The translations under genes and the position numbers were made by a program. From assembly GCA_020632235.1 (NCBI GenBank), contig JACKFY010000001.1:29602-93601 (forward strand): a stretch of DNA of 64,000 nt, given 5' to 3'. This DNA is from Pseudomonadales bacterium. Its GTDB lineage: Bacteria > Patescibacteriota > Microgenomatia > UBA1400 > PJMF01. Positions 4,544 through 58,598 of the stretch are shown here, piece after piece (position 1 is the first letter of the stretch; each line of letters opens with the position of its first letter). A model generated the notes under the pieces. The model was not told where the DNA came from and made no database searches. It was given only the letters and a program-made list of their open reading frames with translations.

Positions 4544-5404
4544 ATGCAACTTGTCCCTGCCTGTGCCTATGACTCTGGTGCCGTGGTGCTGTTTGACTTT
4601 GAATCATTTTCTAGCTGGGCAAACGTGTGCTCCCTTGACCTCACACAGTCAGAAGCTGCTGGGCAGTTGACCAAGACATATCAAGAGCTACTTGCTATTG
4701 TTGCTCCAGAGGTTTCTGGGGTTATTTTGAGTCCTCAGTTTGGGTTTGACCTTCTCTATAGCAAACCCGATCCTTGTGGGGTTGTGTTTGGTCTGGATCA
4801 AGTACCACCTTCGCCCACAAAAACGACAGTACCACTTCTCAGTACCCAGTGGACGCAAGAGCACATTCGCCATAACTACGGTGTTTCGAAACTTCGCTTG
4901 GAGTATGATCCATCGGCACATGACGCATACGACAAACAGCAGATGATACTAGAACTGTATGAGTACGCTCAGTACATCGGCATTCATTTTCTTATCGATC
5001 TATCCACTCCCCAGCTGGAAGATGCAGAGTCACCATTGGTGGAAGCACTCAAGCATATTCGTCAGTCATGTCACGGAGTGATGGTGAATAGCCTTGACTC
5101 AGCCCTTACTGCTGCGACGGTAACCGCCCAGCTTGACAACCTTTGGTTAGCGCGTCTTCCTCAGTCGGAGTATCAACAGCAAAAAGAGTACGTGCGGATG
5201 GTGATGGAAAATGGTGCTACTGGCATTGTGATTGGTCCACACAGTTTTGATGCAGGACTTCTTACTCTTGAGGCACCTTCAAATGAAACTCTTGACCCAC
5301 ATGCAGTTTTGAATAATAAAACAAGCGAACACATTCGCGACAGAGTGTTAGAGCTTACTCGTCTTGTTCAGGAGGGGTTTCTCCAGACATCACCAGCCCG
5401 TTGA
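4544..5404 (+). CDS. hypothetical protein
   Basis: 286-aa ORF with no confident family assignment. Confidence 0.45.
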   Translation: MQLVPACAYDSGAVVLFDFESFSSWANVCSLDLTQSEAAGQLTKTYQELLAIVAPEVSGVILSPQFGFDLLYSKPDPCGVVFGLDQVPPSPTKTTVPLLSTQWTQEHIRHNYGVSKLRLEYDPSAHDAYDKQQMILELYEYAQYIGIHFLIDLSTPQLEDAESPLVEALKHIRQSCHGVMVNSLDSALTAATVTAQLDNLWLARLPQSEYQQQKEYVRMVMENGATGIVIGPHSFDAGLLTLEAPSNETLDPHAVLNNKTSEHIRDRVLELTRLVQEGFLQTSPAR

Positions 5405-5465
5405 CGCTATTACTCTTCACATGGTAGGTTGAGCTCTACACTAAACTAACCAAGAAAGGTAGCTC

Positions 5466-6068
5466 ATGTTTACACTTCCCACACTTCCCTATGATTTTTC
5501 AGCACTTGAGCCAAGCATCGATGCCCGCACCATGGAGATCCACTACACCAAGCATCACCAGGGATATACTGATAAGCTGAACGGTGCTATCGAGGGGTCA
5601 GAGCTCGCAGATGCATCCATAGAAGAAGTTCTCTGTGTTGTTTCTCAGCACTCAGTAGCTGTACGTAACAACGCAGGCGGGTACTACAATCACACACTGT
5701 TTTGGGGGTCGATGAAGCCAGGAGAGGCGACACAGCCCACAGGAGAGCTCCTGGAAGCTCTCAGCGCCACGTTTGGCTCGGTTGACGGATTCAAGCAAGA
5801 GTTTTCAAACGCTGCCGCTACTCAGTTTGGCTCTGGATGGGCGTGGTTGGTGATGAGTGATGGACAGCTACAAGTAGTGGCCACGCCAAACCAAGACAAC
5901 CCACTCATGGACGTGGCAGATATTCGCGGCATCCCCCTTCTTGGACTTGATGTGTGGGAGCATGCCTACTACCTGCAGTATCAAAACAAACGGCCTGAGT
6001 ACATAGAAAACTGGTGGAGTGTGGTCAACTGGGATGTTGTAGCCGATAGACTTGCTGCTGCCTCTTGA
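5466..6068 (+). CDS. sodA: Fe/Mn superoxide dismutase
   Basis: [28 protein letters not shown] ... [19 protein letters not shown] are canonical Fe/Mn-SOD motifs. Confidence 0.9.
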
Positions 6069-6093
6069 AGGATAGCTATTTTTCTAAGTTTTT

Positions 6094-6681
6094 ATGAAAC
6101 AAGTTATTTTTGATGTTGAGACAAAGCGCACCTTTGATGAAGTGGGTGGAGTCTTCCCCGAAAAACTAGGTATTTCCTACATTGGCGTGTGTGTCAGGGA
6201 GCATCATAACACCGATGGCGAGGTGTTTGGTTTTTTTGAAAAAGATATCCCCGATTTCCTCTCTCTGCTAGAGAGTGCTGACGTAGTGGTGGGGTTTAAC
6301 AGCGATCATTTTGATTTACCTACGTTACTTGCCTACAACAGCGATCTTAACCTTCGTGAGATGCCCAGTCTGGACCTGATGGCGCGAATTAAAGACAGCG
6401 CTGGTCATAGAATAGGGCTAGATGCAGTAGCAAAGGAAACCCTTGGTGTTGGCAAAACAGGTGATGGTCTTGATGCTATCAAGTACTACCAAACAAAAAA
6501 CTGGGACGCGCTAGCCAAGTACTGCTTGCAAGATGTGGCAGTAACACGTGACATCTATGACCATGGGGTGGGGAAGGGTCATGTGCTGTTTAAAAACAAG
6601 TGGAACCGGCTGATTACCTGCCCGGTTGACTTTAGTTTTACTCCCGTCAAGAAAGTGGGGACGCAGCGTAGCTTGTTTTGA
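6094..6681 (+). CDS. DEDDy-type 3'-5' exonuclease (RNase H-like fold)
   Basis: Exo I FDVET, Exo II GFNSDHFDLP and Exo III YCLQDV (Y-x3-D) motifs. Confidence 0.6.
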   Translation: MKQVIFDVETKRTFDEVGGVFPEKLGISYIGVCVREHHNTDGEVFGFFEKDIPDFLSLLESADVVVGFNSDHFDLPTLLAYNSDLNLREMPSLDLMARIKDSAGHRIGLDAVAKETLGVGKTGDGLDAIKYYQTKNWDALAKYCLQDVAVTRDIYDHGVGKGHVLFKNKWNRLITCPVDFSFTPVKKVGTQRSLF

Positions 6682-6690
6682 CCCTCAAAC

Positions 6691-6954
6691 CTACATCATC
6701 TTGTACATCCACCACAAGACCAAGACCATAAAGAGCACCAAGAATAACATGATGAGCATGCTGGCGTTTGGGTTATCGCGGTCGAACTGCTGCTGTTCTT
6801 TATCTAGGTATTTTTTGTTGAGCGAGCTGTTGCTTTTTTTAGCAGTACTGCGTTTTTTACTTGCGGAGGCTGTTTTTTTAGCACTCGCTGACTTTGTTGT
6901 TTTGCGAGTTGTTTTTTTTACTGTCTTTTTTTTGGTTGCAGCTTTCTTTGGCAT
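6691..6954 (-). CDS. small Lys-rich protein with a C-terminal transmembrane helix
   Basis: MPKKAATKKKTVKK... low-complexity basic N-terminus plus a hydrophobic C-terminus. The overlapping + strand ORF looks spurious. Confidence 0.35.
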   Translation of the reverse strand: MPKKAATKKKTVKKTTRKTTKSASAKKTASASKKRSTAKKSNSSLNKKYLDKEQQQFDRDNPNASMLIMLFLVLFMVLVLWWMYKMM

Positions 6955-7091
6955 AGGGCAGATACATGATAAGTAGTACTGACTTCATCATAGCATACTG
7001 TCTTTACCTGCTACAACAGCCAGTTTTCCTCTGCTTTTTATTTCATCAATAGTATGGCTATAATGGAGAGGTTTTTATACAAAACTGCCCT

Positions 7092-8786
7092 ATGAGTTTA
7101 ACTGATACACAACTGCAAAAAGTGTTGCAAGATTCCGGTCATTTGAGTGATGCTAGTTTAAAACAAGTGCGCTCACTTTCTCAGCAGCACTCTATTTCTT
7201 TTCGAAAAGCTCTGATTCAGGGTAGTGTGATTACCGATGAAGAGCTAGGCAAGATGGAGGCAAAGCTAATGAAGGTGCCGTTTGTGGTGTTGACCCAACA
7301 AGAGATCGACCCTGATGTACTCAACCTTATACCCGTTGATAGTGCCAAAAAACACAAGACGATTGTGTTTGACCGAGACAAAGAGGGCTTAAAGGTCGCT
7401 ATTGCCGACACCAAAGATGTGCAGCTGCTTAAACTACTCGCCAAGAAAACAAAAGAGAAAGTTAAGGGCTACTACGCGACAGAGCAAGATATTGAAAACA
7501 CCATCGTGCTGTACAGACAAGATATTCAGAAAAAGTTTGCCGAGCTTGTCAAGGAGGGGCTGGGAGCAGTATTTGTGAGTAACAAGATGGACCCGCCAAT
7601 AGAGAAAATTGTTGATTTACTTATTCAGTCTTCGTACGAGCAGAAGGCGTCTGATGTACACATAGAGCCAAAAGAAGAGATGACGGTGGTGCGGTTTCGC
7701 ATTGATGGCTTGTTGTATGACGCGCTGCGTGTGCCCGCGCAGCTGCACGATCGCATTATCACCAGAATCAAGGTGTTGGCAGGGCTTCGCACCGATGAGC
7801 ACATGAGTGCGCAGGACGGCAAGATTCGCACCTCGGTCAACGGTGAAGACCTCGACCTTCGTGTTTCCATCTTGCCGGTAGCTGATGGTGAGAAAGTCGT
7901 CTTTCGCCTTCTTTCTTCCAAGGCCCGCTCGTACTCGGTGCTTGAACTCGGCTTGAGCGAGCGCGATCTAAAGGTTTTACAGGCAGCATACGCCAAGCCC
8001 AACGGCATGGTGCTCTCCACTGGCCCGACGGGTTCGGGCAAGACGACCAGTATTTACTCTATCCTCAAAGAGATCACCACAAAGGAAAAAAATATCACCA
8101 CGGTGGAAGACCCCATCGAGTACTACATGGAGGGTGCCAACCAAGTGCAGGTGAACACCAAGGCCAACTTGACGTTTGCCAACGGCTTGCGATCCATCCT
8201 TCGTCAAGACCCTGACTATATTTTTGTGGGTGAAATTCGTGACAACGAGACCGCCGGCATTGCGGTCAACGCGGCATTGACTGGTCACTTGGTGGTCTCG
8301 ACTCTCCACACCAATGATGCGGCTTCGGCATTTCACCGCCTGATAGACATGGATGTAGAGCCATTTTTGGTTGCTTCAACAGTCAACGTGATTGTAGCTC
8401 AGCGTTTGGTGCGCAAAATTTGCAATGCATGCCGCACTTCTTCAACAGTTACCGAAAAAGAGTTGCTTAAAAACCTTTCTACCGACATGATCCAAAAACA
8501 TTATGTGCCCGTTGGTGATAAAAAAGAAGTACGGGTATATGAGGGAAAGGGGTGTGAGCGGTGTCACTTTTCTGGCTACGAAGGTCGTATCGGCCTCTTT
8601 GAAGTACTGGAAGTTACCAAGCGCGTTAAAGACCTGGTTATCGCGCAAGCTGTTTCAGATGAAATAATGAAAGTAGCCATAGAAGAAGGTATGACCAGCA
8701 TGCTGGACGATGGCCTAGATAAAATCACCAAAGGTTTGACCACCATAGAAGAAGTCTTGCGTGTAACCAAGATAGAGGCAGAGTAG
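7092..8786 (+). CDS. pilB: type IV pilus assembly ATPase PilB (GspE family)
   Basis: N-terminal GSPII domain, Walker A GPTGSGKTT and a tetracysteine zinc motif CNAC...CERC. Confidence 0.9.
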   Translation: MSLTDTQLQKVLQDSGHLSDASLKQVRSLSQQHSISFRKALIQGSVITDEELGKMEAKLMKVPFVVLTQQEIDPDVLNLIPVDSAKKHKTIVFDRDKEGLKVAIADTKDVQLLKLLAKKTKEKVKGYYATEQDIENTIVLYRQDIQKKFAELVKEGLGAVFVSNKMDPPIEKIVDLLIQSSYEQKASDVHIEPKEEMTVVRFRIDGLLYDALRVPAQLHDRIITRIKVLAGLRTDEHMSAQDGKIRTSVNGEDLDLRVSILPVADGEKVVFRLLSSKARSYSVLELGLSERDLKVLQAAYAKPNGMVLSTGPTGSGKTTSIYSILKEITTKEKNITTVEDPIEYYMEGANQVQVNTKANLTFANGLRSILRQDPDYIFVGEIRDNETAGIAVNAALTGHLVVSTLHTNDAASAFHRLIDMDVEPFLVASTVNVIVAQRLVRKICNACRTSSTVTEKELLKNLSTDMIQKHYVPVGDKKEVRVYEGKGCERCHFSGYEGRIGLFEVLEVTKRVKDLVIAQAVSDEIMKVAIEEGMTSMLDDGLDKITKGLTTIEEVLRVTKIEAE

Positions 8787-9905: not shown

Positions 9906-10331
9906 TTAAGAGGCGTCAGGGGTGTTTTTCAACAAGTTGTTCACGATCTCTACTAGCTGGTCTGGCGTGATGTCAGTTTTTGCATAGACTGCTTTAGCAC
10001 CTAGTCGCTTTGCCTGTTGCAACACAGGATCGTTTACTAGGTTGGTCAGCAAAATGATTGGCCCTTTTTTTTCAATCAGTTTTTTTTCAAACAACATAGT
10101 GAGAATACCGATGCCATCAATTTGTGGCATCATGACGTCAAGGAGGATGGCATCGTGCGAGCCTTCCTCAATAGCAGCCAGCCCAGCTTTACCGTCGCTG
10201 TGTGTCTCGACGGTAAAACCCGCCGACTTTAAAACCTCTTCGTAGAGTTCTCGGATAAAGAGGTCGTCATCAATGAGTAAAAGTGAGCTCGCCATATAGG
10301 TCAGTGTACGTCTGATACTCTTTTTTTTCAA
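9906..10331 (-). CDS. stand-alone response regulator receiver (CheY-like)
   Basis: LLIDDD...DAILLDVMMPQIDG...K are the REC-domain acidic pocket and Lys. The true start may be the internal Met (MASSLLL). Confidence 0.8.
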   Translation of the reverse strand: MKKKSIRRTLTYMASSLLLIDDDLFIRELYEEVLKSAGFTVETHSDGKAGLAAIEEGSHDAILLDVMMPQIDGIGILTMLFEKKLIEKKGPIILLTNLVNDPVLQQAKRLGAKAVYAKTDITPDQLVEIVNNLLKNTPDAS

Positions 10332-10335
10332 TCAG

Positions 10336-11466
10336 TTATTTTTGACCTCCCAATTGGTAAAGTGCACAGGTAAAACTACCACCCGCACCATACGAAAGCA
10401 TGAGAATCAGCTCTCCCGGTTGCATGTTTTCAAGCCGTCTACCCATAGACATGTGTATAGTAGCGGCAGGGACGTTTCCTTCGGTAATAGACCACTCAAT
10501 TGCTTCAGCCGGAATACTGAGGCGTTGTTTTCCTTCCAGGTATAAAAAGGGTTTCTTTGGACTGTACTGATACGTTTCAGAAAGATTACCCGCTACAATA
10601 TCAAATATTCCTCTACTGGGATGATGCATGATGACTGCTGTTATTTCTTGGCAGAGTGTTCCTACACTCTTGTTATTTTCTTGAGCATGCTCTAGTAGCA
10701 CTGCATACGCTAACGTTACGATGTTGGGAGGAAAGTATCTTAACGCACCAAGTGCACTCATTACTACACTGATATCTTTTTCATCTGGAGGTGAGTTGTG
10801 CGGGGCTACACTATCTGGTGTGTGTGCCTCTTCCCATTCATCCCATGAATGCTGAAATCGAAGGCAATTTACACCTTTTTCTACAGCCTTGCTTCTTCCC
10901 TCTAGAAGGTGTAAACCTGGATGGTAAGTATTATCATCTGCAGTAGAGTAAGTACCAAGGAGAATAGAAGCCCCGGTAGAAAAGACCTGCGGTGATTCCG
11001 CATCTTTCGGCAAACCAGTAGGGTAGCCTCCTTCCATAGCCACCAATGCGTATTCGATTGTGTCTTTTTTGCTAAGTTTTCCATTTTCAAAAAATGCCCC
11101 CGAGTGCAGATCATAGAGGAGTGAACCAGATGAATCACACGCTTTTGAGTAGACAATGACTGGAATGGTGTCCTCGCACCTCAGATTTCGTCTCACTCGT
11201 TCACGCACATCGGGTGTCAACGGCGCGGTGGTAGCTACCAGAATTACGTCAATATTTGCTGGCGTAACTGCATGTTCTTCAAACGTTTTCTTGGCTAGTT
11301 CAGCGACTACAACATCTTGAATGCGTGCCAGTACTTCGGCACCAAGATTTTGAGTCACTAGGTAGGTTTCTTCAAACCCACTCGTTTCAGCTATAGATTT
11401 GACCGTTTCTAACCCAAGCATTTCCCTAGCGCGCTGCACTATTGCTTCAGGCCCTTTACTGTGCAC
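10336..11466 (-). CDS. KAS III (FabH)-like thiolase-fold condensing enzyme; N-terminus in another frame (frameshift at A6 11480-11485)
   Basis: NIDVILVATTAP...VYSKACDSSGSLLYDL...APHNSPP...LSYGAGGSFTCAL align to the FabH active-site Cys, His and C-terminal regions. An upstream small ORF carries an ITIGSVF (IGTGSY-like) motif; a single base in the homopolymer would fuse it to this ORF. Confidence 0.7.
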   Translation of the reverse strand: MHSKGPEAIVQRAREMLGLETVKSIAETSGFEETYLVTQNLGAEVLARIQDVVVAELAKKTFEEHAVTPANIDVILVATTAPLTPDVRERVRRNLRCEDTIPVIVYSKACDSSGSLLYDLHSGAFFENGKLSKKDTIEYALVAMEGGYPTGLPKDAESPQVFSTGASILLGTYSTADDNTYHPGLHLLEGRSKAVEKGVNCLRFQHSWDEWEEAHTPDSVAPHNSPPDEKDISVVMSALGALRYFPPNIVTLAYAVLLEHAQENNKSVGTLCQEITAVIMHHPSRGIFDIVAGNLSETYQYSPKKPFLYLEGKQRLSIPAEAIEWSITEGNVPAATIHMSMGRRLENMQPGELILMLSYGAGGSFTCALYQLGGQK

Positions 11467-11746
11467 CCGTAAAAAACAGAACCGATGGTTATACCGACTG
11501 CGGCATTATGGTGTACTTCCATATTTGAAACAGACATTTTTCTACAATTTTCAGAAAAAGCTTCTAGAGCAATCACATCTGCGGAGAGGTCAGGAATTTC
11601 CTGGTTATTTTCTAGACCGTAAGCCTTAAAGAGTGTGGTCAGAGGTTTACCTTGTTCTGCAGATTCTTTTGTCATATTTGACGAATAGATGGATAGATCA
11701 GTATAGTGGATTTAAGTTATATTTTGTAGTATTTGTGAATACATAT

Positions 11747-11764
11747 GGGTCTAGACAACTTAAG
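11747..11764. repeat. left terminal inverted repeat of the IS element
   Basis: gggtctagacaacttaag. Confidence 0.8.
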
Positions 11765-11779
11765 CATCACTTAAGTGAT

Positions 11780-12465
11780 AAAATAGTTGTTAAGACCAAT
11801 GAAAAAACAAGTACATACGTCGTTCAAGAGTTTCAGAGGCTAAATTCAGAGATTTTGAGGTATTTCTGCGCTGATCAAACTGCAGCGCAAGCTGCAGTTC
11901 TTTCAGGTGTGAGTCGCAACTCAATTAACAGCTTGTATCATAAAATCAGAGTTCGCATTGTGAGTTTGTCTGTAGCAAACTCTCTGAGCTGGAGAGTTTG
12001 AAGTTGATGAGAGCTATTTTGGAGCAAAAAAAAGTAAGAGGCAAAAAGAGGAAGGGGGTGCAGCAGGAAAAACACCAGTGTTTGGTGTACTCAAGCGTGA
12101 TGGAAAAGTATACGTTAACATTGTTAAAAAACTGCACTAGAGAGCAATTAATGCCTATTATCCAGGGAAAAATACTTGAAGGATCCACTATCTACTCAGA
12201 TGGGTGGCAGGCGTATGACGGACTTATCCTCAATGGCTATGATCACTATCGTGTATTTCACTCGCATGATGAGTTTGTACGTGGCAAAGCACATGTCAAT
12301 GGTATAGAGAGCTTCTGGAGCTTTACAAAGAAGACTTGCAAAGTTTAATGGCTTGAAAAGTGATACATTTCATCTACACTTAAAAGAAAGTGAGTTTCGA
12401 TGGAATATGCGTGGAGAAAATATGTATCATTACTTACTACAGGAATTTAGAGAGAACAGCCACTT
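11780..12465 (+). pseudogene. IS1595-family DDE transposase, frameshifted into at least three pieces
   Basis: The pieces are GAAGKTPVFGVLKRDGKVYVNIVK, then TREQLMPII...STIYSDGWQAYDGL...HSHDEFVRGKAHVNGIESFWS, then FHLHLKESEFRWNMR (family C-terminal signature). They lie in different frames. Confidence 0.75.
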
Positions 12466-12467
12466 TA

Positions 12468-12482
12468 AAGTTGTCTAGACCC
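12468..12482. repeat. right terminal inverted repeat of the IS element
   Basis: aagttgtctagaccc is the reverse complement of the left end. Confidence 0.8.
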
Positions 12483-12558
12483 TACATATTTATTACTTAT
12501 TAAAGATTTTACAAAGTATAAATATAATTATCCCATAATTAAGTTAAATAAGATAATT

Positions 12559-12894
12559 ATGATAAGAATAGAGAAACAGAGAGACGCACACCATCCCGGT
12601 GTTAGTCCTTTATTGAGTGAACCAACTGCATTTCCTTTTATAGATGCATTTTCGCAACTAAGAGCTCCTGTTGTAGATCCTCTGAGAGTTATAGATAGAA
12701 AAGATAAACTAGCCGTTTACAGAGAAATTTATCGTTTGTGCTCAATCTTATACGGAGTTGATATTTCTGAGCCACTTAATGCAAGAGATATTGAAAAAAT
12801 AATGGAAACACATAAGACATTAGCAAAACAACTGGACAAGAACATACAGCATATTATAACTATTGTTTTGATATCCCAATTCCACCTTTGCTAG
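12559..12894 (+). CDS. hypothetical protein (AT-rich island)
   Basis: 111-aa ORF in a roughly 37 percent GC segment just right of the IS. Confidence 0.4.
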   Translation: MIRIEKQRDAHHPGVSPLLSEPTAFPFIDAFSQLRAPVVDPLRVIDRKDKLAVYREIYRLCSILYGVDISEPLNARDIEKIMETHKTLAKQLDKNIQHIITIVLISQFHLC

Positions 12895-12946
12895 AAGAGA
12901 CTTATAAAGATTACACATTTAATGGAAGTATGTTGAGGAGTTTTAA

Positions 12947-13488
12947 GTGCGGAGCACATGTTACGAAATATTACTCTTGCAGATTAATATATATATTGGT
13001 GAAGAAACGATGGGAGAGCTTGGAAGTGGTAGTGACCAGTTTCCTCTGACATTAGAGTCATTAAAAGAAGTAACTGCAGGTATGATCACAGGTTTTGATC
13101 AAGATACCTTGGTAGTTACAGTCACTGATGAGCAGGATATTCCTATTGGTATGATCAGGTTGATAAGAGGAAAGGTGACTTTTCAGTATTTACTGCATTT
13201 GGAAATACAGAAACTAACCTATCTAACTTCAGCAGTTTTCAACCACCTTTAGACTCAACTTTAGATCGGTTGGTGGTAGATGAATTTGGTCAATTTACTA
13301 CAAGTAAGGGTTTGAATGTAGGAAGATTTGCTGTCGATTCTCAAATTAGAAGAGATCGCATGATAGCACCATTACTTCTATATTTAGCAGGAAAATTAGT
13401 CGAAAAGTATAATGAAGAGTGTGTAGAAGATGGAAGAAGTCCTATAGTATTTCTCACCTGTGATACTCATGATAGAGCATCATTATGA
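12947..13488 (+). pseudogene. possible LuxI/FeeM-like GNAT-fold acyltransferase, split by a frameshift near 13180-13250
   Basis: FDQDTLVVTVTDEQDIPIGMIRLIRG (like E-D-YD...G-RLLPT) and LNVGRFAVDS (like WELSRFAV) lie in two overlapping frames. The second piece uses a TTG/GTG start. Weak, motif-level only. Confidence 0.3.
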
Positions 13489-13670
13489 CAGCTACAAAAT
13501 ATTTAGGCGCTCAATTAGTTATTGATCCTCAACATCTTGTTTCAGTACATATGGAAGGAGCGCATGAGCATCATTATCGAAATCATAGTGGTGATGTTTC
13601 AATTTTAGTGGCACATGCTGATCACTTTATAAGTGGTGGTAAAGAACAAAGTGAAAAAAATAATGCGTAG
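13485..13670 (+). CDS. small His-rich protein ending ...HFISGG-KEQSEKNNA (Ubl/sulfur-carrier-like or RiPP precursor candidate)
   Basis: 61 aa. Its start overlaps the upstream stop (ATGA) and it lies 21 bp upstream of the E1-like gene. GDVSILVAHADHFISGG resembles the last beta-strand plus GG of ThiS/MoaD. Confidence 0.45.
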   Translation: MTATKYLGAQLVIDPQHLVSVHMEGAHEHHYRNHSGDVSILVAHADHFISGGKEQSEKNNA

Positions 13671-13691
13671 AAGTGTTAGGAACAATGCAGC

Positions 13692-15053
13692 ATGATTAAT
13701 CGAGAAGATACCGACTTCGCCGGTAATGTGGAAGGAGTTGGTCATAAAAAAAAAGAGATAGCTCCGTATATTTACTCATATAAAGACTTTAGCCAGAGTT
13801 TTTTACCCGAGGACGCTCCTCAGTTGCCAGATGAGAGGCCGTATGAAATTCAAAAGAAGGAACTTCTCCAACTCCTCGATTTATATAAACACACATTACA
13901 TATTTTACCTGCAGAAGCACAGACAGCTGATGTAATTAGTTTAGTATTACATAGAGCTAACGATTTACTTGAGACTGGTATGCTCAGTCAGGAAGAACTA
14001 GCAAGAATTCAATTAATAATTGAGCTGTATTCTGAAGTATTTGATAATTATTTACTCTATCGAAGGATGATTTTGGAGCGCGAAGAAGCAATTAAAAATG
14101 ATGAGGGCGTAATGATTTATCATCCTAATACTAATTTATTCTATCGTTCCGTATCTAAAGAATTATTCTTATTACTAAGAATGAGTAGAGGTAGTACACT
14201 AGAAAGTCCTAACACGAAACGTAAAAGACAGCAAATAAGGTACCGTTTTATCGGAGCGAGTGTGGCAGGCGCAACCATTTTAAGAGCTGTTAAAGACGGC
14301 GCAATGGATGTAGTGATTGCTGATGCAGATACAATATCTGGTTCAAATCAAGAGCGACTAGCTGGTTTAGCAGCACACTTATATCAAATCGGTGAATATA
14401 AAGTAGATGCCTTGCTTGCGGACATGTATGCTATTAATCCATTTGGGAACTATAGAACTGAGCGTCGTTTGGTAATGCCTGATAATTTAGTCACAGATAA
14501 CTCAAAACATATTCCTATTTCAGAATATGTTGAAGAAGATACATTACTCATAGATGTTGCTGACTCATATAAAGCCGAGTTGCGAATAGCTTTATTCCAA
14601 GCAGGTATACTAATCCCTATTATTTCACTTGCTGACACACATCCTACACCTTTTGGTTTATACGAAGTAGTTGGTGAAGATAATCCCTTTGGACAGCGTG
14701 ACACATATGAAGAATGGAAATCATGGGTTGTGAGTGCGGAAAGTTTAAGCGAAGTTCAATTGGCTGCATACAAAGCTTTAACTACTGTAAAAATATTAGA
14801 GGACAGAGTGCCTGCTCCAACTTTAGTGAGTTTTATACATAATGTTTTTGGTTTGCAATCATTTTTACCTCAAGAACCAGCTGATCCTGGTGTATCTGCA
14901 AGTATTTTTTCTAAGTTATTACGGCAAATTATCGAAGGTATAGATGTAAAGGGTCGACCGCTTACGCTTACAGATTTGACAAATTTAGAAAAAGATACTC
15001 AATATGATAGGTCTGTGTTATTAAACTTTATCAAACTTTGTTTAAGCGAATAG
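13692..15053 (+). CDS. E1-like (ThiF/MoeB/MccB family) adenylyltransferase with a novel 190-aa N-terminal domain
   Basis: RFIGASVAGATILRAVKDGAMDVVIADADTISGSNQERL is the Rossmann GxGxxG plus D-x-D...SN-x-RQ motif. ...AINP...LLIDVADSYKAELRIALFQAGILIPIIS is the E1 core. There is no CxxC motif and no Cys in the N-domain. Confidence 0.65.
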   Translation: MINREDTDFAGNVEGVGHKKKEIAPYIYSYKDFSQSFLPEDAPQLPDERPYEIQKKELLQLLDLYKHTLHILPAEAQTADVISLVLHRANDLLETGMLSQEELARIQLIIELYSEVFDNYLLYRRMILEREEAIKNDEGVMIYHPNTNLFYRSVSKELFLLLRMSRGSTLESPNTKRKRQQIRYRFIGASVAGATILRAVKDGAMDVVIADADTISGSNQERLAGLAAHLYQIGEYKVDALLADMYAINPFGNYRTERRLVMPDNLVTDNSKHIPISEYVEEDTLLIDVADSYKAELRIALFQAGILIPIISLADTHPTPFGLYEVVGEDNPFGQRDTYEEWKSWVVSAESLSEVQLAAYKALTTVKILEDRVPAPTLVSFIHNVFGLQSFLPQEPADPGVSASIFSKLLRQIIEGIDVKGRPLTLTDLTNLEKDTQYDRSVLLNFIKLCLSE

Positions 15054-15094
15054 ATTTCATTGCTTGTTTTATGTAAGTATTCTAGAATGAAGCA

Positions 15095-15406
15095 ATGCTC
15101 TTTATTTTTATTTTACTTACTGTAGCTGCTAATTTGCTTATTTCTCTGATAGTTCTTAAAAAGAATCCTCGATCACATACTAATAGACTTATTGCAGCTC
15201 TCTCGATATTTGTTGCTCTTTGGAGTACAGCACAGTACATTTCTTTACTACCTCATGATGAACCAGAGCGATTGTTTTGGGTGCGAAGTATTATGGCCCT
15301 TACCGCTCCTGTATCAGTAATATTATATGGGATATCTCGATCTTTTCCAGATAGTAGTATTACACTAGAATTGAAAAAAAAAACTTGGTTTTCTTTTTAT
15401 GGATAG
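15095..15406 (+). CDS. N-terminal membrane segment of the sensor histidine kinase (separated from the rest by a frameshift at the A10 tract 15374-15383)
   Basis: Three TM helices. Both frames are open across the A10 run. One more or two fewer A would fuse it to the 15385 ORF. Confidence 0.6.
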   Translation: MLFIFILLTVAANLLISLIVLKKNPRSHTNRLIAALSIFVALWSTAQYISLLPHDEPERLFWVRSIMALTAPVSVILYGISRSFPDSSITLELKKKTWFSFYG

Positions 15407-17334
15407 CTGGTCTCATTATTATAGCTTTTACGTCATTAGCATTTTCTGAACTTAGCAACAACCCTGATGGCACTTTTAGTCTTTCACCAGGGCCTGCAAT
15501 AGTGCTATATGCCTTAAACATTTTTATTTTTATGTTTCTAGCTTTCAAAAACTTATATAATAAGTATCGACAAGCAAAAGGTGTTTTAAAAGAACAAATT
15601 AAGATTGTATCTTCTGGAATTATTACATCTTTTACTCTACTGACACTGACAAATTTTGTAGCTGTTGTCTTATTTAAGTCAATTAAATTAACTTCTTTAG
15701 GTCCTCCATCAACTTTGATCATGGTTGCTTCAATGACATATGCAATTGCTCGACATAAATTATTTGATGTTCGAGCAGCGATTGTACGATCAATATCCTT
15801 TACCGTTCTGCTTTCTTTATTTGCATTGTTATATAGTTTTATTTTCTTTTTTATTATTAACCAATTTTTAGATTATTTACCTAGTTGGATTAAAACCTTA
15901 ATATTTGCATTATTATTGGTGCCTATTATGTACTCATTTGATAGCATTAAGCGTTTCTTACAAAGACGGACAGAAAAAATATTTTATAAAAATTTTTATG
16001 ATATTGATCAAACTGCAAAGTTATTAGCTGAAGAAATTAATGGCACACTTGAACTAAAAAAATTGATAAATGATGTTATACGACAGCTAGAAGGAATCTT
16101 GCAAGTTGAAGGAATACGAGTACTTATAGGTAAAAACAAGCAGGCAAAGATATATGAGAATAGTACGTTATTATCTAACCATGATCAGCTTGTTCAATTT
16201 TTATACCTAGTGAAAAAAATTAGAAGAAGGAAGCTAAGTTATTTACTTCTAAGTGATACTCCTGAAGGAAAATTGAAGGAAACTTTTCGTGCATTAAGTA
16301 CAGAATTAGTATTTCTATTTGAGGCGACTAGCGGGATAATAGGAGGGGGTTTTTTTCCTCCAAAGAACAATGGTGATCCCTATACTAGCCAAGATATTCA
16401 ACTGCTAAGTATTGTAGTACCCCAACTATCTGTTGCACTTCAGAACTCTCAGTCATACGAGGAAATCAGTAAATTCAATACCACCCTCAAAGAAGAAGTA
16501 AAGAAAGCAACCACCAAGCTAAAATCAATGAATCAAAATCTTCGCAACCTCGACCGCCTCAAAGATGAATTTCTCTCTATCGCTTCCCACGAGCTGCGCA
16601 CGCCCATGACCGCTATCAAGTCCTACATTTACATGACACTTTCAGGCAAAGGTGGCAAAGTGACCAAAAAACAAAAGTACTATCTAGAGCGCTCGTACAT
16701 GGCCACCGAGCGACTCATCAAGCTTGTCAACAATCTACTGAACATCTCGCGCATTGAGTCGGGCAGGATCTCGCTGGAGCTGGAAAAAATCAATCTTTAT
16801 CGTCTCACTGACGAGGTGTTTGACGAGGTGCGCGCCCGCGCTGAGGAGCTGGGGCTTTCCATCAGCCAAACCAAGCTGGAAGAGCAGAAAAAGCTAGAAG
16901 TTATCGCCGACACAGATAAAGTCAAAGAGGTTTTGATCAACTACATCGGCAACTCACTCAAGTTTACCCCCAAGGGGGGTAGTATCACGGTTTCATACGA
17001 AGTGGCTGACGACATGATCTGGACCAGGGTGACCGACACCGGGGCTGGCGTGTCTCAAGAAGATCTGGGTAACTTGTTTCAAAAATTTGGTCTGATGGAA
17101 GGGTCATATCAGGTAAACCAAAATGTGTCGCAGGGCACGGGCTTGGGTCTCTACATCTGCAAGTCGGTTATTGAGTTGCATGGGGGCGAGGTAGATGCTA
17201 CCTCTCCAGGGGTAGGAAAGGGAACGGTGTTCTCATTTTCACTCCCTCTCTACACGGCTAAAAAGTATTTGGGTCTCAAGAAAAAGTTTGGTGGAAAAGA
17301 TGGTGTTGGCATCGTGCATACATCTGCGTCATAA
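15385..17334 (+). CDS. sensor histidine kinase (multi-TM sensor, HisKA, HATPase_c)
   Basis: At least six further TM helices. H-box EFLSIASHELRTPMTAIKSY. N, G1 and G2 boxes (NSLKFTPKGG...DTGAGV...GTGLGL). Confidence 0.85.
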   Translation: MVFFLWIAGLIIIAFTSLAFSELSNNPDGTFSLSPGPAIVLYALNIFIFMFLAFKNLYNKYRQAKGVLKEQIKIVSSGIITSFTLLTLTNFVAVVLFKSIKLTSLGPPSTLIMVASMTYAIARHKLFDVRAAIVRSISFTVLLSLFALLYSFIFFFIINQFLDYLPSWIKTLIFALLLVPIMYSFDSIKRFLQRRTEKIFYKNFYDIDQTAKLLAEEINGTLELKKLINDVIRQLEGILQVEGIRVLIGKNKQAKIYENSTLLSNHDQLVQFLYLVKKIRRRKLSYLLLSDTPEGKLKETFRALSTELVFLFEATSGIIGGGFFPPKNNGDPYTSQDIQLLSIVVPQLSVALQNSQSYEEISKFNTTLKEEVKKATTKLKSMNQNLRNLDRLKDEFLSIASHELRTPMTAIKSYIYMTLSGKGGKVTKKQKYYLERSYMATERLIKLVNNLLNISRIESGRISLELEKINLYRLTDEVFDEVRARAEELGLSISQTKLEEQKKLEVIADTDKVKEVLINYIGNSLKFTPKGGSITVSYEVADDMIWTRVTDTGAGVSQEDLGNLFQKFGLMEGSYQVNQNVSQGTGLGLYICKSVIELHGGEVDATSPGVGKGTVFSFSLPLYTAKKYLGLKKKFGGKDGVGIVHTSAS

Positions 17335-47692: not shown

Positions 47693-48135
47693 GGGGATGT
47701 ATAGCTTTGACGTGGCGTGCTCATTAACATCTGCAGATCGTCTTTGACTAGAGAAGACGTTAAACAGAGTCAAAACTTATAACTGCAAATAAAACAGCAG
47801 ATACAGTTGCAAGCAGAGCTAAATCTATGCTTCTTGAGGTTGGTGAAACAGCTTCAGCAGCTTTTAGCTCTCGTGTAGCTCCACAATACGCTACGCTCGT
47901 AGCGTAAACTGGCATTCACGCATCTCCTCTCACTGATGGGAGTGTGTGGGTGAAAACCTCAGTCGGTGTGACGGCGTTTTGTCTCCTTTCGCTGGGCGCT
48001 CAAGACTTTTGAAAGGGAGTGTGCTGGTAGGTTTGTCTATCTACCGCCAGTGCTCTACTACAAAAATAGCCTATGTCTGTAGATGATGTTGGTGTGTTCA
48101 CACGGACGCGGGCTCGATACCCGCCATCTCCACCA
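47693..48135 (+). ncRNA. ssrA: tmRNA (ssrA)
   Basis: 5' GGGGATGTATAGCTTTGACGTGGCG pairs with 3' ...GGACGCGGGCTCGATACCCGCCATCTCCACCA (T-arm plus ACCA). An internal ORF ends ...VAPQYATLVA-stop (47905-47907), resembling ...ENYALAA tags. Confidence 0.7.
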
Positions 48136-48796: not shown

Positions 48797-48976
48797 CAGG
48801 CCAATTGTAAAGATGAAATCTGACAGATAGCTTTCATCAATCTTTGTTATTTCGACTTCTGATATGTCGGGGTTGGAAAAATGCCCAACACAGACTTCTT
48901 TCCGCCAGCCGGCGGATCGAAGTGACGTGAAGGCTAGGTTTCTCGAACATGCTCGAAGTGATAACCAAACGCATTG

Positions 48977-49050
48977 TGGTCAATGCTGGACTTGAACCAG
49001 CGACCTCACGAATGTGAATCGTGCGCTCTAACCAACTGAGCTAATTGACC
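48977..49050 (-). tRNA. tRNA-Val (anticodon CAC)
   Basis: Cloverleaf GGTCAAT...GATTCACATTCGTG...GGTTCAAGTCC...ATTGACCA. CCA is not encoded. Confidence 0.85.
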
Positions 49051-56579: not shown

Positions 56580-56604
56580 TCTTTACAGCTTCGTTTTAAC
56601 TCGG

Positions 56605-56688
56605 CGGAAGGAGTGGGATTCGAACCCACGAGACCACATGGGTCACGGTTTTCAAGACCGTTGCAATAGACCGCTCTGCCATCCTTCC
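56605..56688 (-). tRNA. tRNA-Ser (anticodon TGA)
   Basis: GGAAGGATGGCAGAGCGG...CTTGAAA anticodon loop, long variable arm, T-arm GGGTTCGAATCCC. Confidence 0.85.
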
Positions 56689-58324: not shown

Positions 58325-58396
58325 GCACCCATAGTTTAACGGATAGAACAGTGGTTTGCGGAACCACCGATCCAGGTTCGATTCCTGGTGGGTGCA
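58325..58396 (+). tRNA. tRNA with anticodon GCG (Arg by anticodon)
   Basis: Perfect 72-nt cloverleaf with 7-bp acceptor, 4-bp D, 5-bp anticodon and 5-bp T stems. Loop TTGCGGA. TTCGATT T-loop. Confidence 0.8.
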
Positions 58397-58401
58397 CAAA
58401 A

Positions 58402-58486
58402 GGAGGGTTCGCATAGTGGTCAATTGCATCGGTTTCGAAAACCGAAGCCTTTTTAGGTTCCGTGGGTTCGAATCCCACACCCTCCG
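58402..58486 (+). tRNA. tRNA-Ser (anticodon CGA)
   Basis: GGAGGGT acceptor, anticodon loop TTCGAAA, long variable arm, T-arm GGGTTCGAATCCC. Confidence 0.85.
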
Positions 58487-58598
58487 CAGCAATAGAAAAG
58501 TTCTGACAGACCCACCTAATACCCCTGAATAGGTTGACGGGGCTTGTTAAAAAAACGCCAAAAGCAACAAATGTTGGTTTTACAGCCGTGTAGTTTTT

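Follow-up and report, generated by a model that had tools for sequence, protein, structure and literature searches.

A probably decayed acyltransferase and ThiF-like enzyme pair tied to a two-component system in a 64,000-nucleotide stretch of a bacterial contig

Directly to the right of an insertion sequence (IS) in the 64,000-nucleotide stretch of contig JACKFY010000001.1 that was analyzed here (the window, meaning this whole stretch) lies an AT-rich segment, 12483-15060, which raises the question of what kind of system it encodes. A first-pass annotation had described a small His-rich peptide ending in GG and translationally coupled to an E1-like adenylating enzyme, with a possible acyltransferase remnant upstream, and had taken the pairing of a GG carrier or peptide with an E1 as the organizing idea of the locus. 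We conclude, with a probability of roughly 0.6, that the region holds, in decayed form, a conserved four-gene module encoding an acyltransferase, a ThiF-like enzyme, a histidine kinase, and a response regulator, in which an enzyme pair acting on a small molecule is tied to a two-component system. On this reading, the window holds a pseudogenized member of a rare, undescribed pair formed by a GNAT-type and a ThiF-like enzyme. Two of the component identifications made in the first-pass annotation were right. The features that carry the argument are the following (aa, amino acids).

12559-13670, plus strand: the gene here called N-dom, of a family of GNAT-fold acyltransferases of about 370 aa; a pseudogene or riddled with errors, in five frame segments
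13485-13670, plus strand: open reading frame (ORF) of 61 aa, previously the "His-rich GG peptide"; the C-terminal segment of the N-dom gene (alpha4, beta6, HHY loop, beta7, C-terminal helix)
13692-15053, plus strand: ThiF-like adenylating enzyme, 453 aa, intact
15095-17334, plus strand: seven-transmembrane (7TM) sensor histidine kinase (Pfam HisKA_7TM, HisKA, HATPase_c)
9906-10331, minus strand: response regulator, receiver domain only (Pfam Response_reg, E 3.7e-20; no output domain)
about 11600-16400, no strand: AT-rich island (34% GC without the IS), covering the N-dom gene, the ThiF-like gene, and the sensor half of the kinase gene

The ORFs at 12947-13252, 13270-13488, 13485-13670, and 13692-15053 were all present in the window. 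When the 370-aa protein encoded upstream of the ThiF-like gene in a related locus (L001) was compared with the window by tblastn, three colinear matches in three frames were obtained (12852-13473), and segments 106-170, 177-275, and 276-348 of a profile built from seven homologues matched in successive window frames. The gene therefore runs from 12559 to 13670 in five segments, and each of its four junctions is a -1 frameshift (at approximately 12846-12852, 12945-12973, 13165-13189, and 13474-13490). The repaired translation of 369 aa scored 69.7 bits as a single domain, while 500 shuffled sequences reached at most 4.2 bits, and it scored 76.4 bits (E 1.2e-19) against an orthologue profile built without it. 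The earlier description of a LuxI/FeeM-like GNAT gene split between two frames at 12947-13488 thus had the GNAT-like character and the frame splitting right, and the limits and number of segments wrong. Recoding of UGA as the cause of the interruptions was considered and rejected; a ribosome reading through the TGA at 13486 would run into a TAG within a few codons. The kinase gene is also broken: within an A10 run (15374-15383), a -1 shift divides it into ORFs 15095-15406 and 15385-17334, the first of which (103 aa) matches the N-termini of orthologous kinases. This break could reflect decay, a sequencing error, or a slippage-prone tract.

We favor real decay of the N-dom gene over assembly error, by roughly 3:1, because the shifts cluster in one gene, two of the four shift zones contain no homopolymer, and the adjacent ThiF-like gene (1.36 kb), which is equally AT-rich and includes an A9 run at 13746-13754, has no shift. 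That all five breaks are assembly or sequencing errors in an organism whose genes are intact and functional appears to us somewhat unlikely. This account draws on the fact that every break is -1, as expected of deletion-biased read errors, on the A10 run at the kinase shift and the TTTT or AAA runs in two of the N-dom shift zones, and on the kinase genes that are likewise split in the metagenome assemblies L007 and L008. It has to contend with about 10 kb of flanking genes that are unshifted and align end to end with their orthologues, and with a nearby IS whose intact target duplication fits real local decay.

The 61-aa ORF corresponds to the C-terminal fifth of the N-dom gene (profile positions 276-344). 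Its KYLGAQLV, HHY, and FISGGK motifs align with KYLGGFVV, HHY, and FTEGGK of L001 and with the equivalent stretch of a fusion protein, P0008, and the L001 370-aa protein (...DTHEGSGVKHLSEKYLGGFVVAE...LRHHYGLEGHQGQIYAMATSVINFTEGGKQ) aligns with the window sequence ...DTHDRASL (stop) / MTATKYLGAQLVID...HEHHYRNHSGDVSILVAHADHFISGGKE. The region lies inside the modeled GNAT fold, with a predicted local distance difference test score (pLDDT) of approximately 86 to 97. A GG is found in 4 of 17 N-dom members and is internal in P0008, and the equivalent region is situated inside eight natural fusion proteins; the H-Y motif is found in 17/17. What had been taken for a separate peptide gene is consequently a gene end: the ATGA overlap read as translational coupling is the fourth frameshift junction, the histidines that made the peptide "His-rich" belong to the invariant H-Y motif of the N-dom family, and the tail likened to ThiS/MoaD beta-grasp carriers is part of a GNAT fold. 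A co-occurring small GG gene, the ground on which the idea of a carrier or peptide coupled to an E1 was to stand or fall, was found beside none of the E1-like homologues, where a gene for 326 to 384 aa or a fused N-terminal domain occurs, and this idea is refuted. The suspicion of an undescribed variant held insofar as the system is undescribed; it is apparently a pair of an acyltransferase and a ThiF-like cyclase and not a ubiquitin-like protein (Ubl)/E1 system or a pathway for RiPPs (peptides that are synthesized ribosomally and modified posttranslationally). For annotation, the case illustrates how a frameshifted gene may be mistaken for a small GG peptide with a coupled E1. The C-terminus of the N-dom protein itself was also considered as an E1 substrate and rejected, since the eight fusion proteins carry this end in their interior.

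The N-dom family is not recognized by existing sequence models. No Pfam family was found for any of the 11 sequences in the N-dom alignment, PF00765 (Autoind_synth) did not match these sequences even at E up to 1, no NCBIfam model recognized the family, and the N-dom profile gave nothing meaningful against PDB sequences. A weak match to Acetyltransf_5 (E 0.006 to 0.018) was restricted to the repaired window sequence and absent from every intact member, and is not evidence for the family; in a word-index homology search, the N-dom alignment returned only two matches. An AlphaFold2 model of the orthologue P0078, built from the 11-sequence alignment (pLDDT, 80.4; predicted template modeling score, 0.80), showed a GNAT topology with inserts, and a fold search placed FeeM and the N-acyl homoserine lactone (AHL) synthase BjaI among its structural neighbors. 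FeeM and an AHL synthase have also been reported as the closest structural homologues of TyzA (PMC10404671). Judged from the model, N-dom resembles TyzA, an N-acyl amino acid synthase of mycobacteria, as well as FeeM and AHL synthases of the LuxI type. The likeness to the LuxI type is structural only, and Foldseek does not pick out the LuxI/FeeM subclass. Unlike these synthases, N-dom is twice the size, with inserts, has a second, ThiF-like enzyme that is required or fused, and is partnered by a histidine kinase and not by a LuxR-type receptor.

The downstream gene encodes a protein with an N-terminal helical region (residues ~49 to 135), a beta-hairpin (140 to 153), an E1-type Rossmann core (~156 to 330), and a C-terminal helical region. 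The E1 adenylation core placed earlier at residues 190 to 340 was correctly recognized, and its start belongs nearer to 135 to 166, so as to include the beta-hairpin and the Arg-finger helix. By itself, the protein scored below threshold against Pfam PF00899 (16.7 bits; cut-off, 28.1; E 0.004), and its best PDB sequence match was Uba4 (E 0.28). A word-index search of 5.8 billion proteins gave no match, itself included. With an E cut-off of 1e-3, an exhaustive phmmer search of 1.84 billion representatives yielded 77 proteins; the top one was 30% identical over residues 47 to 431. The homologues clear the PF00899 threshold, and the family profile matched TcdA, MoeB, and ThiF PDB chains at E 5e-15 to 2e-9, so that the ThiF family assignment, although subthreshold for the window protein, is significant for its homologues and for the family profile.

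The E1-type Rossmann fold and the nucleotide-binding residues are present, namely the Arg finger, the Gly-rich loop, the ribose-binding Asp, SN..R, the Lys, and the Mg-binding Asp. R166, G188, S190, G203, D211, K237, and D315 are invariant in the family, as are N219 and R222 in the closer set. The single cysteine (residue 450) is not conserved. Because the adenylation residues are invariant and the lone cysteine is not conserved, the 453-aa protein is, as read from its sequence, an adenylating ThiF-like enzyme that does not use thioester chemistry. The structural matches of its model (search figures in parentheses) were led by AclA (PDB 9egb; 22.5) and included MoeB (18.4), Uba3 (18.3), Atg7 (18.3), Uba5 (18.1), MccB (17.8), Cap2 (17.4), PaaA (17.2), and TcdA (16.6). 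In contrast to MccB, PaaA, TcdA, ThiF, MoeB, Cap2, and BilD, the window protein shows no RiPP recognition element (RRE) or peptide clamp, no CxxC, and no catalytic cysteine, and the pair has no E2, JAMM, rhodanese, or carrier-protein partner. It further differs from MccB and PaaA in an N-terminal region for which the prediction gives helices and a single hairpin, the latter common to TrzS-type cyclases, and in the lack of a small ORF conserved in the module.

To place this enzyme among characterized systems, the 77 homologues were sorted by profile score; 55 belonged to the window family, and the other 22 to a second type. When 10 of the 22 were checked against NCBIfam, the best match was NF005901 ("Rv1355c family") in nine (E 1e-42 to 1e-111), and three of the ten carry a fused Acg-type FMN oxidoreductase. 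Rv1355c is TrzS; TrzA/TrzS are Rv1356c/Rv1355c of Mycobacterium tuberculosis, and in TrzS a D217A substitution abolished the second, ThiF-catalyzed step. The window protein scored 65.9 bits (E 1.3e-16) over residues 135 to 317 against the profile of this second, TrzS type, and the beta-hairpin ahead of the Arg-finger helix is common to both. Outside its own family, the exhaustive search returned only proteins scoring best against the TrzS/TyzB-type profile; none of the 77 was seen to be a canonical ThiF/MoeB/TcdA-type protein. Members of the window family scored only 22 to 37 bits against NF005901, far under its cut-off of 476; their 55 representatives make up a group of their own. Among characterized enzymes, the nearest relatives of the ThiF-like enzyme thus appear to be TrzS, TyzB, and OxzB, the cyclases that use ATP in acyl-oxazolone biosynthesis. 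OxzB and TyzB carry out the ATP-dependent cyclization of N-acyl amino acids (PMC12596934, PMC10404671, bioRxiv 10.1101/2020.06.11.147165). In the TyzA/B/C and OxzA/B systems, an acyltransferase forms the N-acyl amino acid, the ThiF homologue cyclizes it with ATP, and an oxidase desaturates the product (PMC10404671; bioRxiv 10.1101/2020.06.11.147165; PMC12596934).

In OxzA/OxzB of Pseudoalteromonas rubra, TyzA/B/C, and TrzA/TrzS, adjacent genes encode a FeeM/AHL-synthase-like N-acyltransferase and a ThiF-like ATP-dependent enzyme acting on the carboxylate of the acylated product. The window pair, whose genes are likewise adjacent, may follow this arrangement. It differs from these systems in several respects. 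A fused or adjacent oxidase of the nitroreductase superfamily is missing from every locus, and two such oxidase domains gave nothing against the window in tblastn. N-dom, at about 370 aa, has no detectable sequence similarity to known families. Fusions known from the oxazolone systems connect ThiF with the oxidase; in eight representatives of the window family, it is the acyltransferase that is fused to the ThiF-like enzyme. The window ThiF-like protein has additional helical regions at its N and C termini, a 7TM histidine kinase invariably accompanies the pair, and the named source of the family is Patescibacteria and not Proteobacteria or Actinomycetota. What is new relative to the oxazolone logic is therefore the absence of the oxidase, the fusion of acyltransferase and ThiF-like enzyme, and the link to a 7TM two-component system. 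A separate observation concerns a stand-alone TrzS-type ThiF-like protein, P0045, in L014 (403-3929; also in L013), whose flanking genes encode a PaaK-like adenylate-forming enzyme of 504 aa and a nitroreductase/alpha-beta-hydrolase fusion. No N-acyltransferase was found next to P0045, and the PaaK-like neighbor is uninformative; this locus may be a further variant of an oxazolone-type cluster.

Conservation across loci carries the argument for a module. The N-dom and ThiF-like genes were adjacent or fused in 10/10 related loci: adjacent in L001, L002, L003/4/5, L008, L009, L011, and L012 (E 1e-21 to 1e-98) and fused in L006, L007, and L010. All eight of the homologues of about 800 aa are N-dom/ThiF-like fusions. 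A HisKA_7TM kinase gene lies directly downstream in 9/9 loci for which downstream sequence exists, and a receiver-only regulator adjoins the module in seven (L001, L003, L006, L007, L008, L009, and L011). In L001, which encodes the best homologue, P0001, the syntenic order is T2SSE, T2SSF, response regulator (minus strand), the 370-aa gene without a Pfam match, ThiF-like, HisKA_7TM, and pseudopilins. Four loci besides the window have a type IV pilus cluster around the module; because L009, L011, and L012 lie outside such clusters, the core consists of the acyltransferase, the ThiF-like enzyme, the kinase, and the regulator. None of the loci contained a nitroreductase, E2, JAMM, or rhodanese gene or a small ORF that was conserved, in agreement with the earlier remark that no rhodanese, JAMM, or E2 partner is in view. 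L009 belongs to a Candidatus Daviesbacteria genome (Patescibacteria/Microgenomates), in which the protein is annotated as "hypothetical protein," and is the sole taxonomically named source of the family. Scans of genome and metagenome contig collections yielded no relatives, and no close relative with the same AT-rich allele.

Two of these loci show peculiarities of their own. The L001 acyltransferase ORF (4946-6058) overlaps the ThiF-like ORF (6001-7326) by 58 nt, and its tail aligns with the inter-domain linker of P0008, so that it may be a fusion split by a frameshift or a mis-call. In L012 (660-3736), the module lies beside 7TM_transglut, an ATP-grasp (RimK-like) protein, and DUF3541, a peptide-ligase-like neighborhood.

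The base composition of the locus bears on its history. GC content is 35.5% in the segment 12483-15060, 47.9% in the 11.4 kb on its left, and 45.2% in the remaining part of the window. The low GC content reported earlier beside the IS is real, and its extent was underestimated: the IS interrupts an island that includes the sensor half of the kinase and ends, at ~16400, well inside the kinase gene (GC fraction of the sensor half, 0.315; of the catalytic half, 0.476). No GC dip was found in the orthologous loci. Divergence was then compared between the window and other loci, set against pairs of other loci with equal T2SSE divergence (65 to 66%), as follows.

N-dom identity: window versus other loci, 25-30%; other loci mutually, 33-47%
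ThiF-like identity: window versus other loci, 28-30%; other loci mutually, 37-43%
Kinase sensor half identity: window versus other loci, 35-46%; other loci mutually, 54-59%
Kinase catalytic half identity: window versus other loci, 58-59%; other loci mutually, 59-62%

Along the kinase, the sliding identity ratio was 0.54 to 0.89 before approximately nucleotide 16400 and 0.92 to 1.09 after it, so that the GC step, the divergence step, and the start of the HisKA domain coincide. Because the AT-rich island also spans the kinase sensor half, these data suggest exchange of the entire module in one piece. That a divergent allele comprising both enzyme genes and the sensor domain was exchanged is a better reading than simple decay, since the long frames stay open, in a comparison that covers one genome only. 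In pattern alone, this recalls the agrBDC/comQXP pherotype modules of Firmicutes, in which one divergent, GC-deviant block takes in the signal-producing genes together with the N-terminal sensor region of the multi-pass kinase next to them; as in those modules, the window block ends at the junction between the sensor and the dimerization and histidine phosphotransfer (DHp) domain. The proteins and the chemistry are unrelated, and the window block is known from a single genome comparison.

Relaxed selection and AT-biased decay of a dying module would also produce a divergent, AT-rich island. The frameshifted N-dom gene, the split kinase, the IS in the promoter region, and the deviation of the window ThiF-like protein from several consensus motifs of its family are all in keeping with such drift. 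Against it, a fall in GC from about 47% to 34% should have put stops into frames of 453 and 649 codons, both of which are open; the ThiF-like protein keeps all its catalytic residues, and its model is very confident; and the boundary of low GC and divergence is sharp and falls at a domain junction inside the kinase. We therefore place drift on the unlikely side as the origin of the island.

What the module might do can be sketched by analogy with the oxazolone systems. The N-dom acyltransferase would N-acylate an amino acid or a similar amine-carboxylate, and the ThiF-like enzyme would adenylate the carboxylate of the N-acylated product. The acyl-adenylate might then be captured intramolecularly, giving an azlactone or another ring, or by another nucleophile. 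As there is no oxidase partner, the product would differ from the known unsaturated oxazolones. Most likely, the small molecule would be the ligand of the kinase, or the enzyme the output of the system, because the pair is always followed by a 7TM kinase and in most loci accompanied by a receiver-only regulator, across differing contexts. The synthase gene is conserved beside a kinase (9/9) and a regulator (seven loci), as in a cassette of the quorum-sensing type, an adjacency that alone does not show sensing.

Several points weigh against this scheme. Gene anatomy, frameshifts, folds, family relationships, fusion, and synteny are results of the analysis, while the substrates, the product, and the signaling role are argued from analogy. 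Neither the related loci nor the window contain the oxidase that defines the oxazolone pathways. For AclA, the top structural match, a literature search found no function. The response regulator, unlike those of classical quorum-sensing circuits, lacks an output domain that binds DNA. Fatty-acid synthesis is missing from many Patescibacteria, and the acyl donor is thus in question. A more far-reaching proposal, which we regard as unlikely as it stands, would make the GNAT/ThiF-like pair the synthase of a new class of small signals (an azlactone or activated amide derived from an N-acyl amino acid) sensed by the 7TM kinase in a private, quorum-sensing-like circuit of Patescibacteria that gates type IV pili in several lineages. 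Synthase and sensor half would be swapped as "pherotype" alleles, the window island being one of these, now decaying.

Alternatively, the pair could modify a protein or ribosomal peptide, such as pilin, the response regulator, or an unrecognized precursor, with the GNAT enzyme acylating it and the ThiF-like enzyme activating a C-terminal or side-chain carboxylate for cross-linking. All characterized ThiF-like enzymes but OxzB act on proteins, peptides, or tRNA (PMC12596934), five loci including the window lie within type IV pilus clusters, and no role is assigned to the helical region conserved at the N-terminus of the ThiF-like protein. The nearest sequence relatives, TrzS and TyzB, are nevertheless small-molecule cyclases, no small ORF is conserved in or beside the tightly packed module, and L009, L011, and L012 carry the module without pilus genes, which makes protein modification decidedly unlikely. 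A defense system was dropped from consideration because the window proteins match no PADLOC defense model. Hardly credible is a separately translated 61-aa GG carrier or precursor adenylated at its C-terminus by the ThiF-like enzyme, in the manner of sulfur carriers, Ubl conjugation, or MccB/PaaA-type RiPPs: the ORF does start with ATG and end in ...FISGGKEQSEKNNA, and the downstream enzyme is E1-like, with MccB and PaaA among its structural matches, but the ORF is colinear with the 370-aa family and part of its modeled GNAT core, no small gene is present in the 10 related loci and GG occurs in few members, the enzyme has neither a conserved cysteine nor a CxxC zinc motif, an RRE-like (winged-helix) segment is not evident in its predicted secondary structure, and the locus tables contain no rhodanese, JAMM, or E2 partner.

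The small-molecule reading of the module matters because ThiF-like enzymes acting on small molecules are known from one type of system, the oxazolone synthetases. As to the physiological role of oxazolones, the OxzAB authors found no phenotype and speculated on stress signaling (bioRxiv 10.1101/2020.06.11.147165). The family described here is rare, numbering approximately 55 clusters (50% identity) in a total of about 15 billion proteins, and is annotated at best as "hypothetical" or as a generic molybdopterin/thiamine adenylyltransferase. It would follow the same two-enzyme logic without the oxidase, often in one polypeptide and always with a 7TM sensor kinase, and it offers a testable case for the purpose of such molecules and for whether ultra-small Patescibacteria, which depend on pili and other cells, use self-made signals.

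Three further features of the window were recorded.

11747-12482, plus strand: IS1595-family insertion sequence, 736 bp (DDE_Tnp_IS1595, E 8e-17; NF033547, E 6e-20)
10336-11466, possibly to 11675, minus strand: beta-ketoacyl-acyl carrier protein synthase III (KAS III, FabH)-like gene (ACP_syn_III_C, E 2.9e-7)
47693-48135, 48976-49050, 56603-56688, and 58325-58487: tmRNA and four tRNA genes (Val-CAC, Ser-TGA, Arg-GCG, and Ser-CGA), ordinary

The IS1595 element lies 76 bp upstream of the N-dom start codon. Its terminal inverted repeats (GGGTCTAGACAACTT) are perfect over 15 bp, and the 7-bp target duplication, TACATAT, is intact. The reading frame of the transposase is interrupted in at least two places, and no second copy was found within the window. 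The KAS III-like gene lies between the response regulator gene and the N-dom gene, in the same direction as the regulator and separated from it by a 4-bp gap. It was not found in any orthologous locus and is an insertion in the window genome only. It may supply the acyl donor, its membership of the module being unproven. Its best PDB sequence match, a weak one (E 0.0015, C-terminal 60 aa only), was PqsD, a quinolone-signal enzyme. A 78-aa ORF in another frame overlaps the KAS III-like gene and may be its displaced N-terminus.

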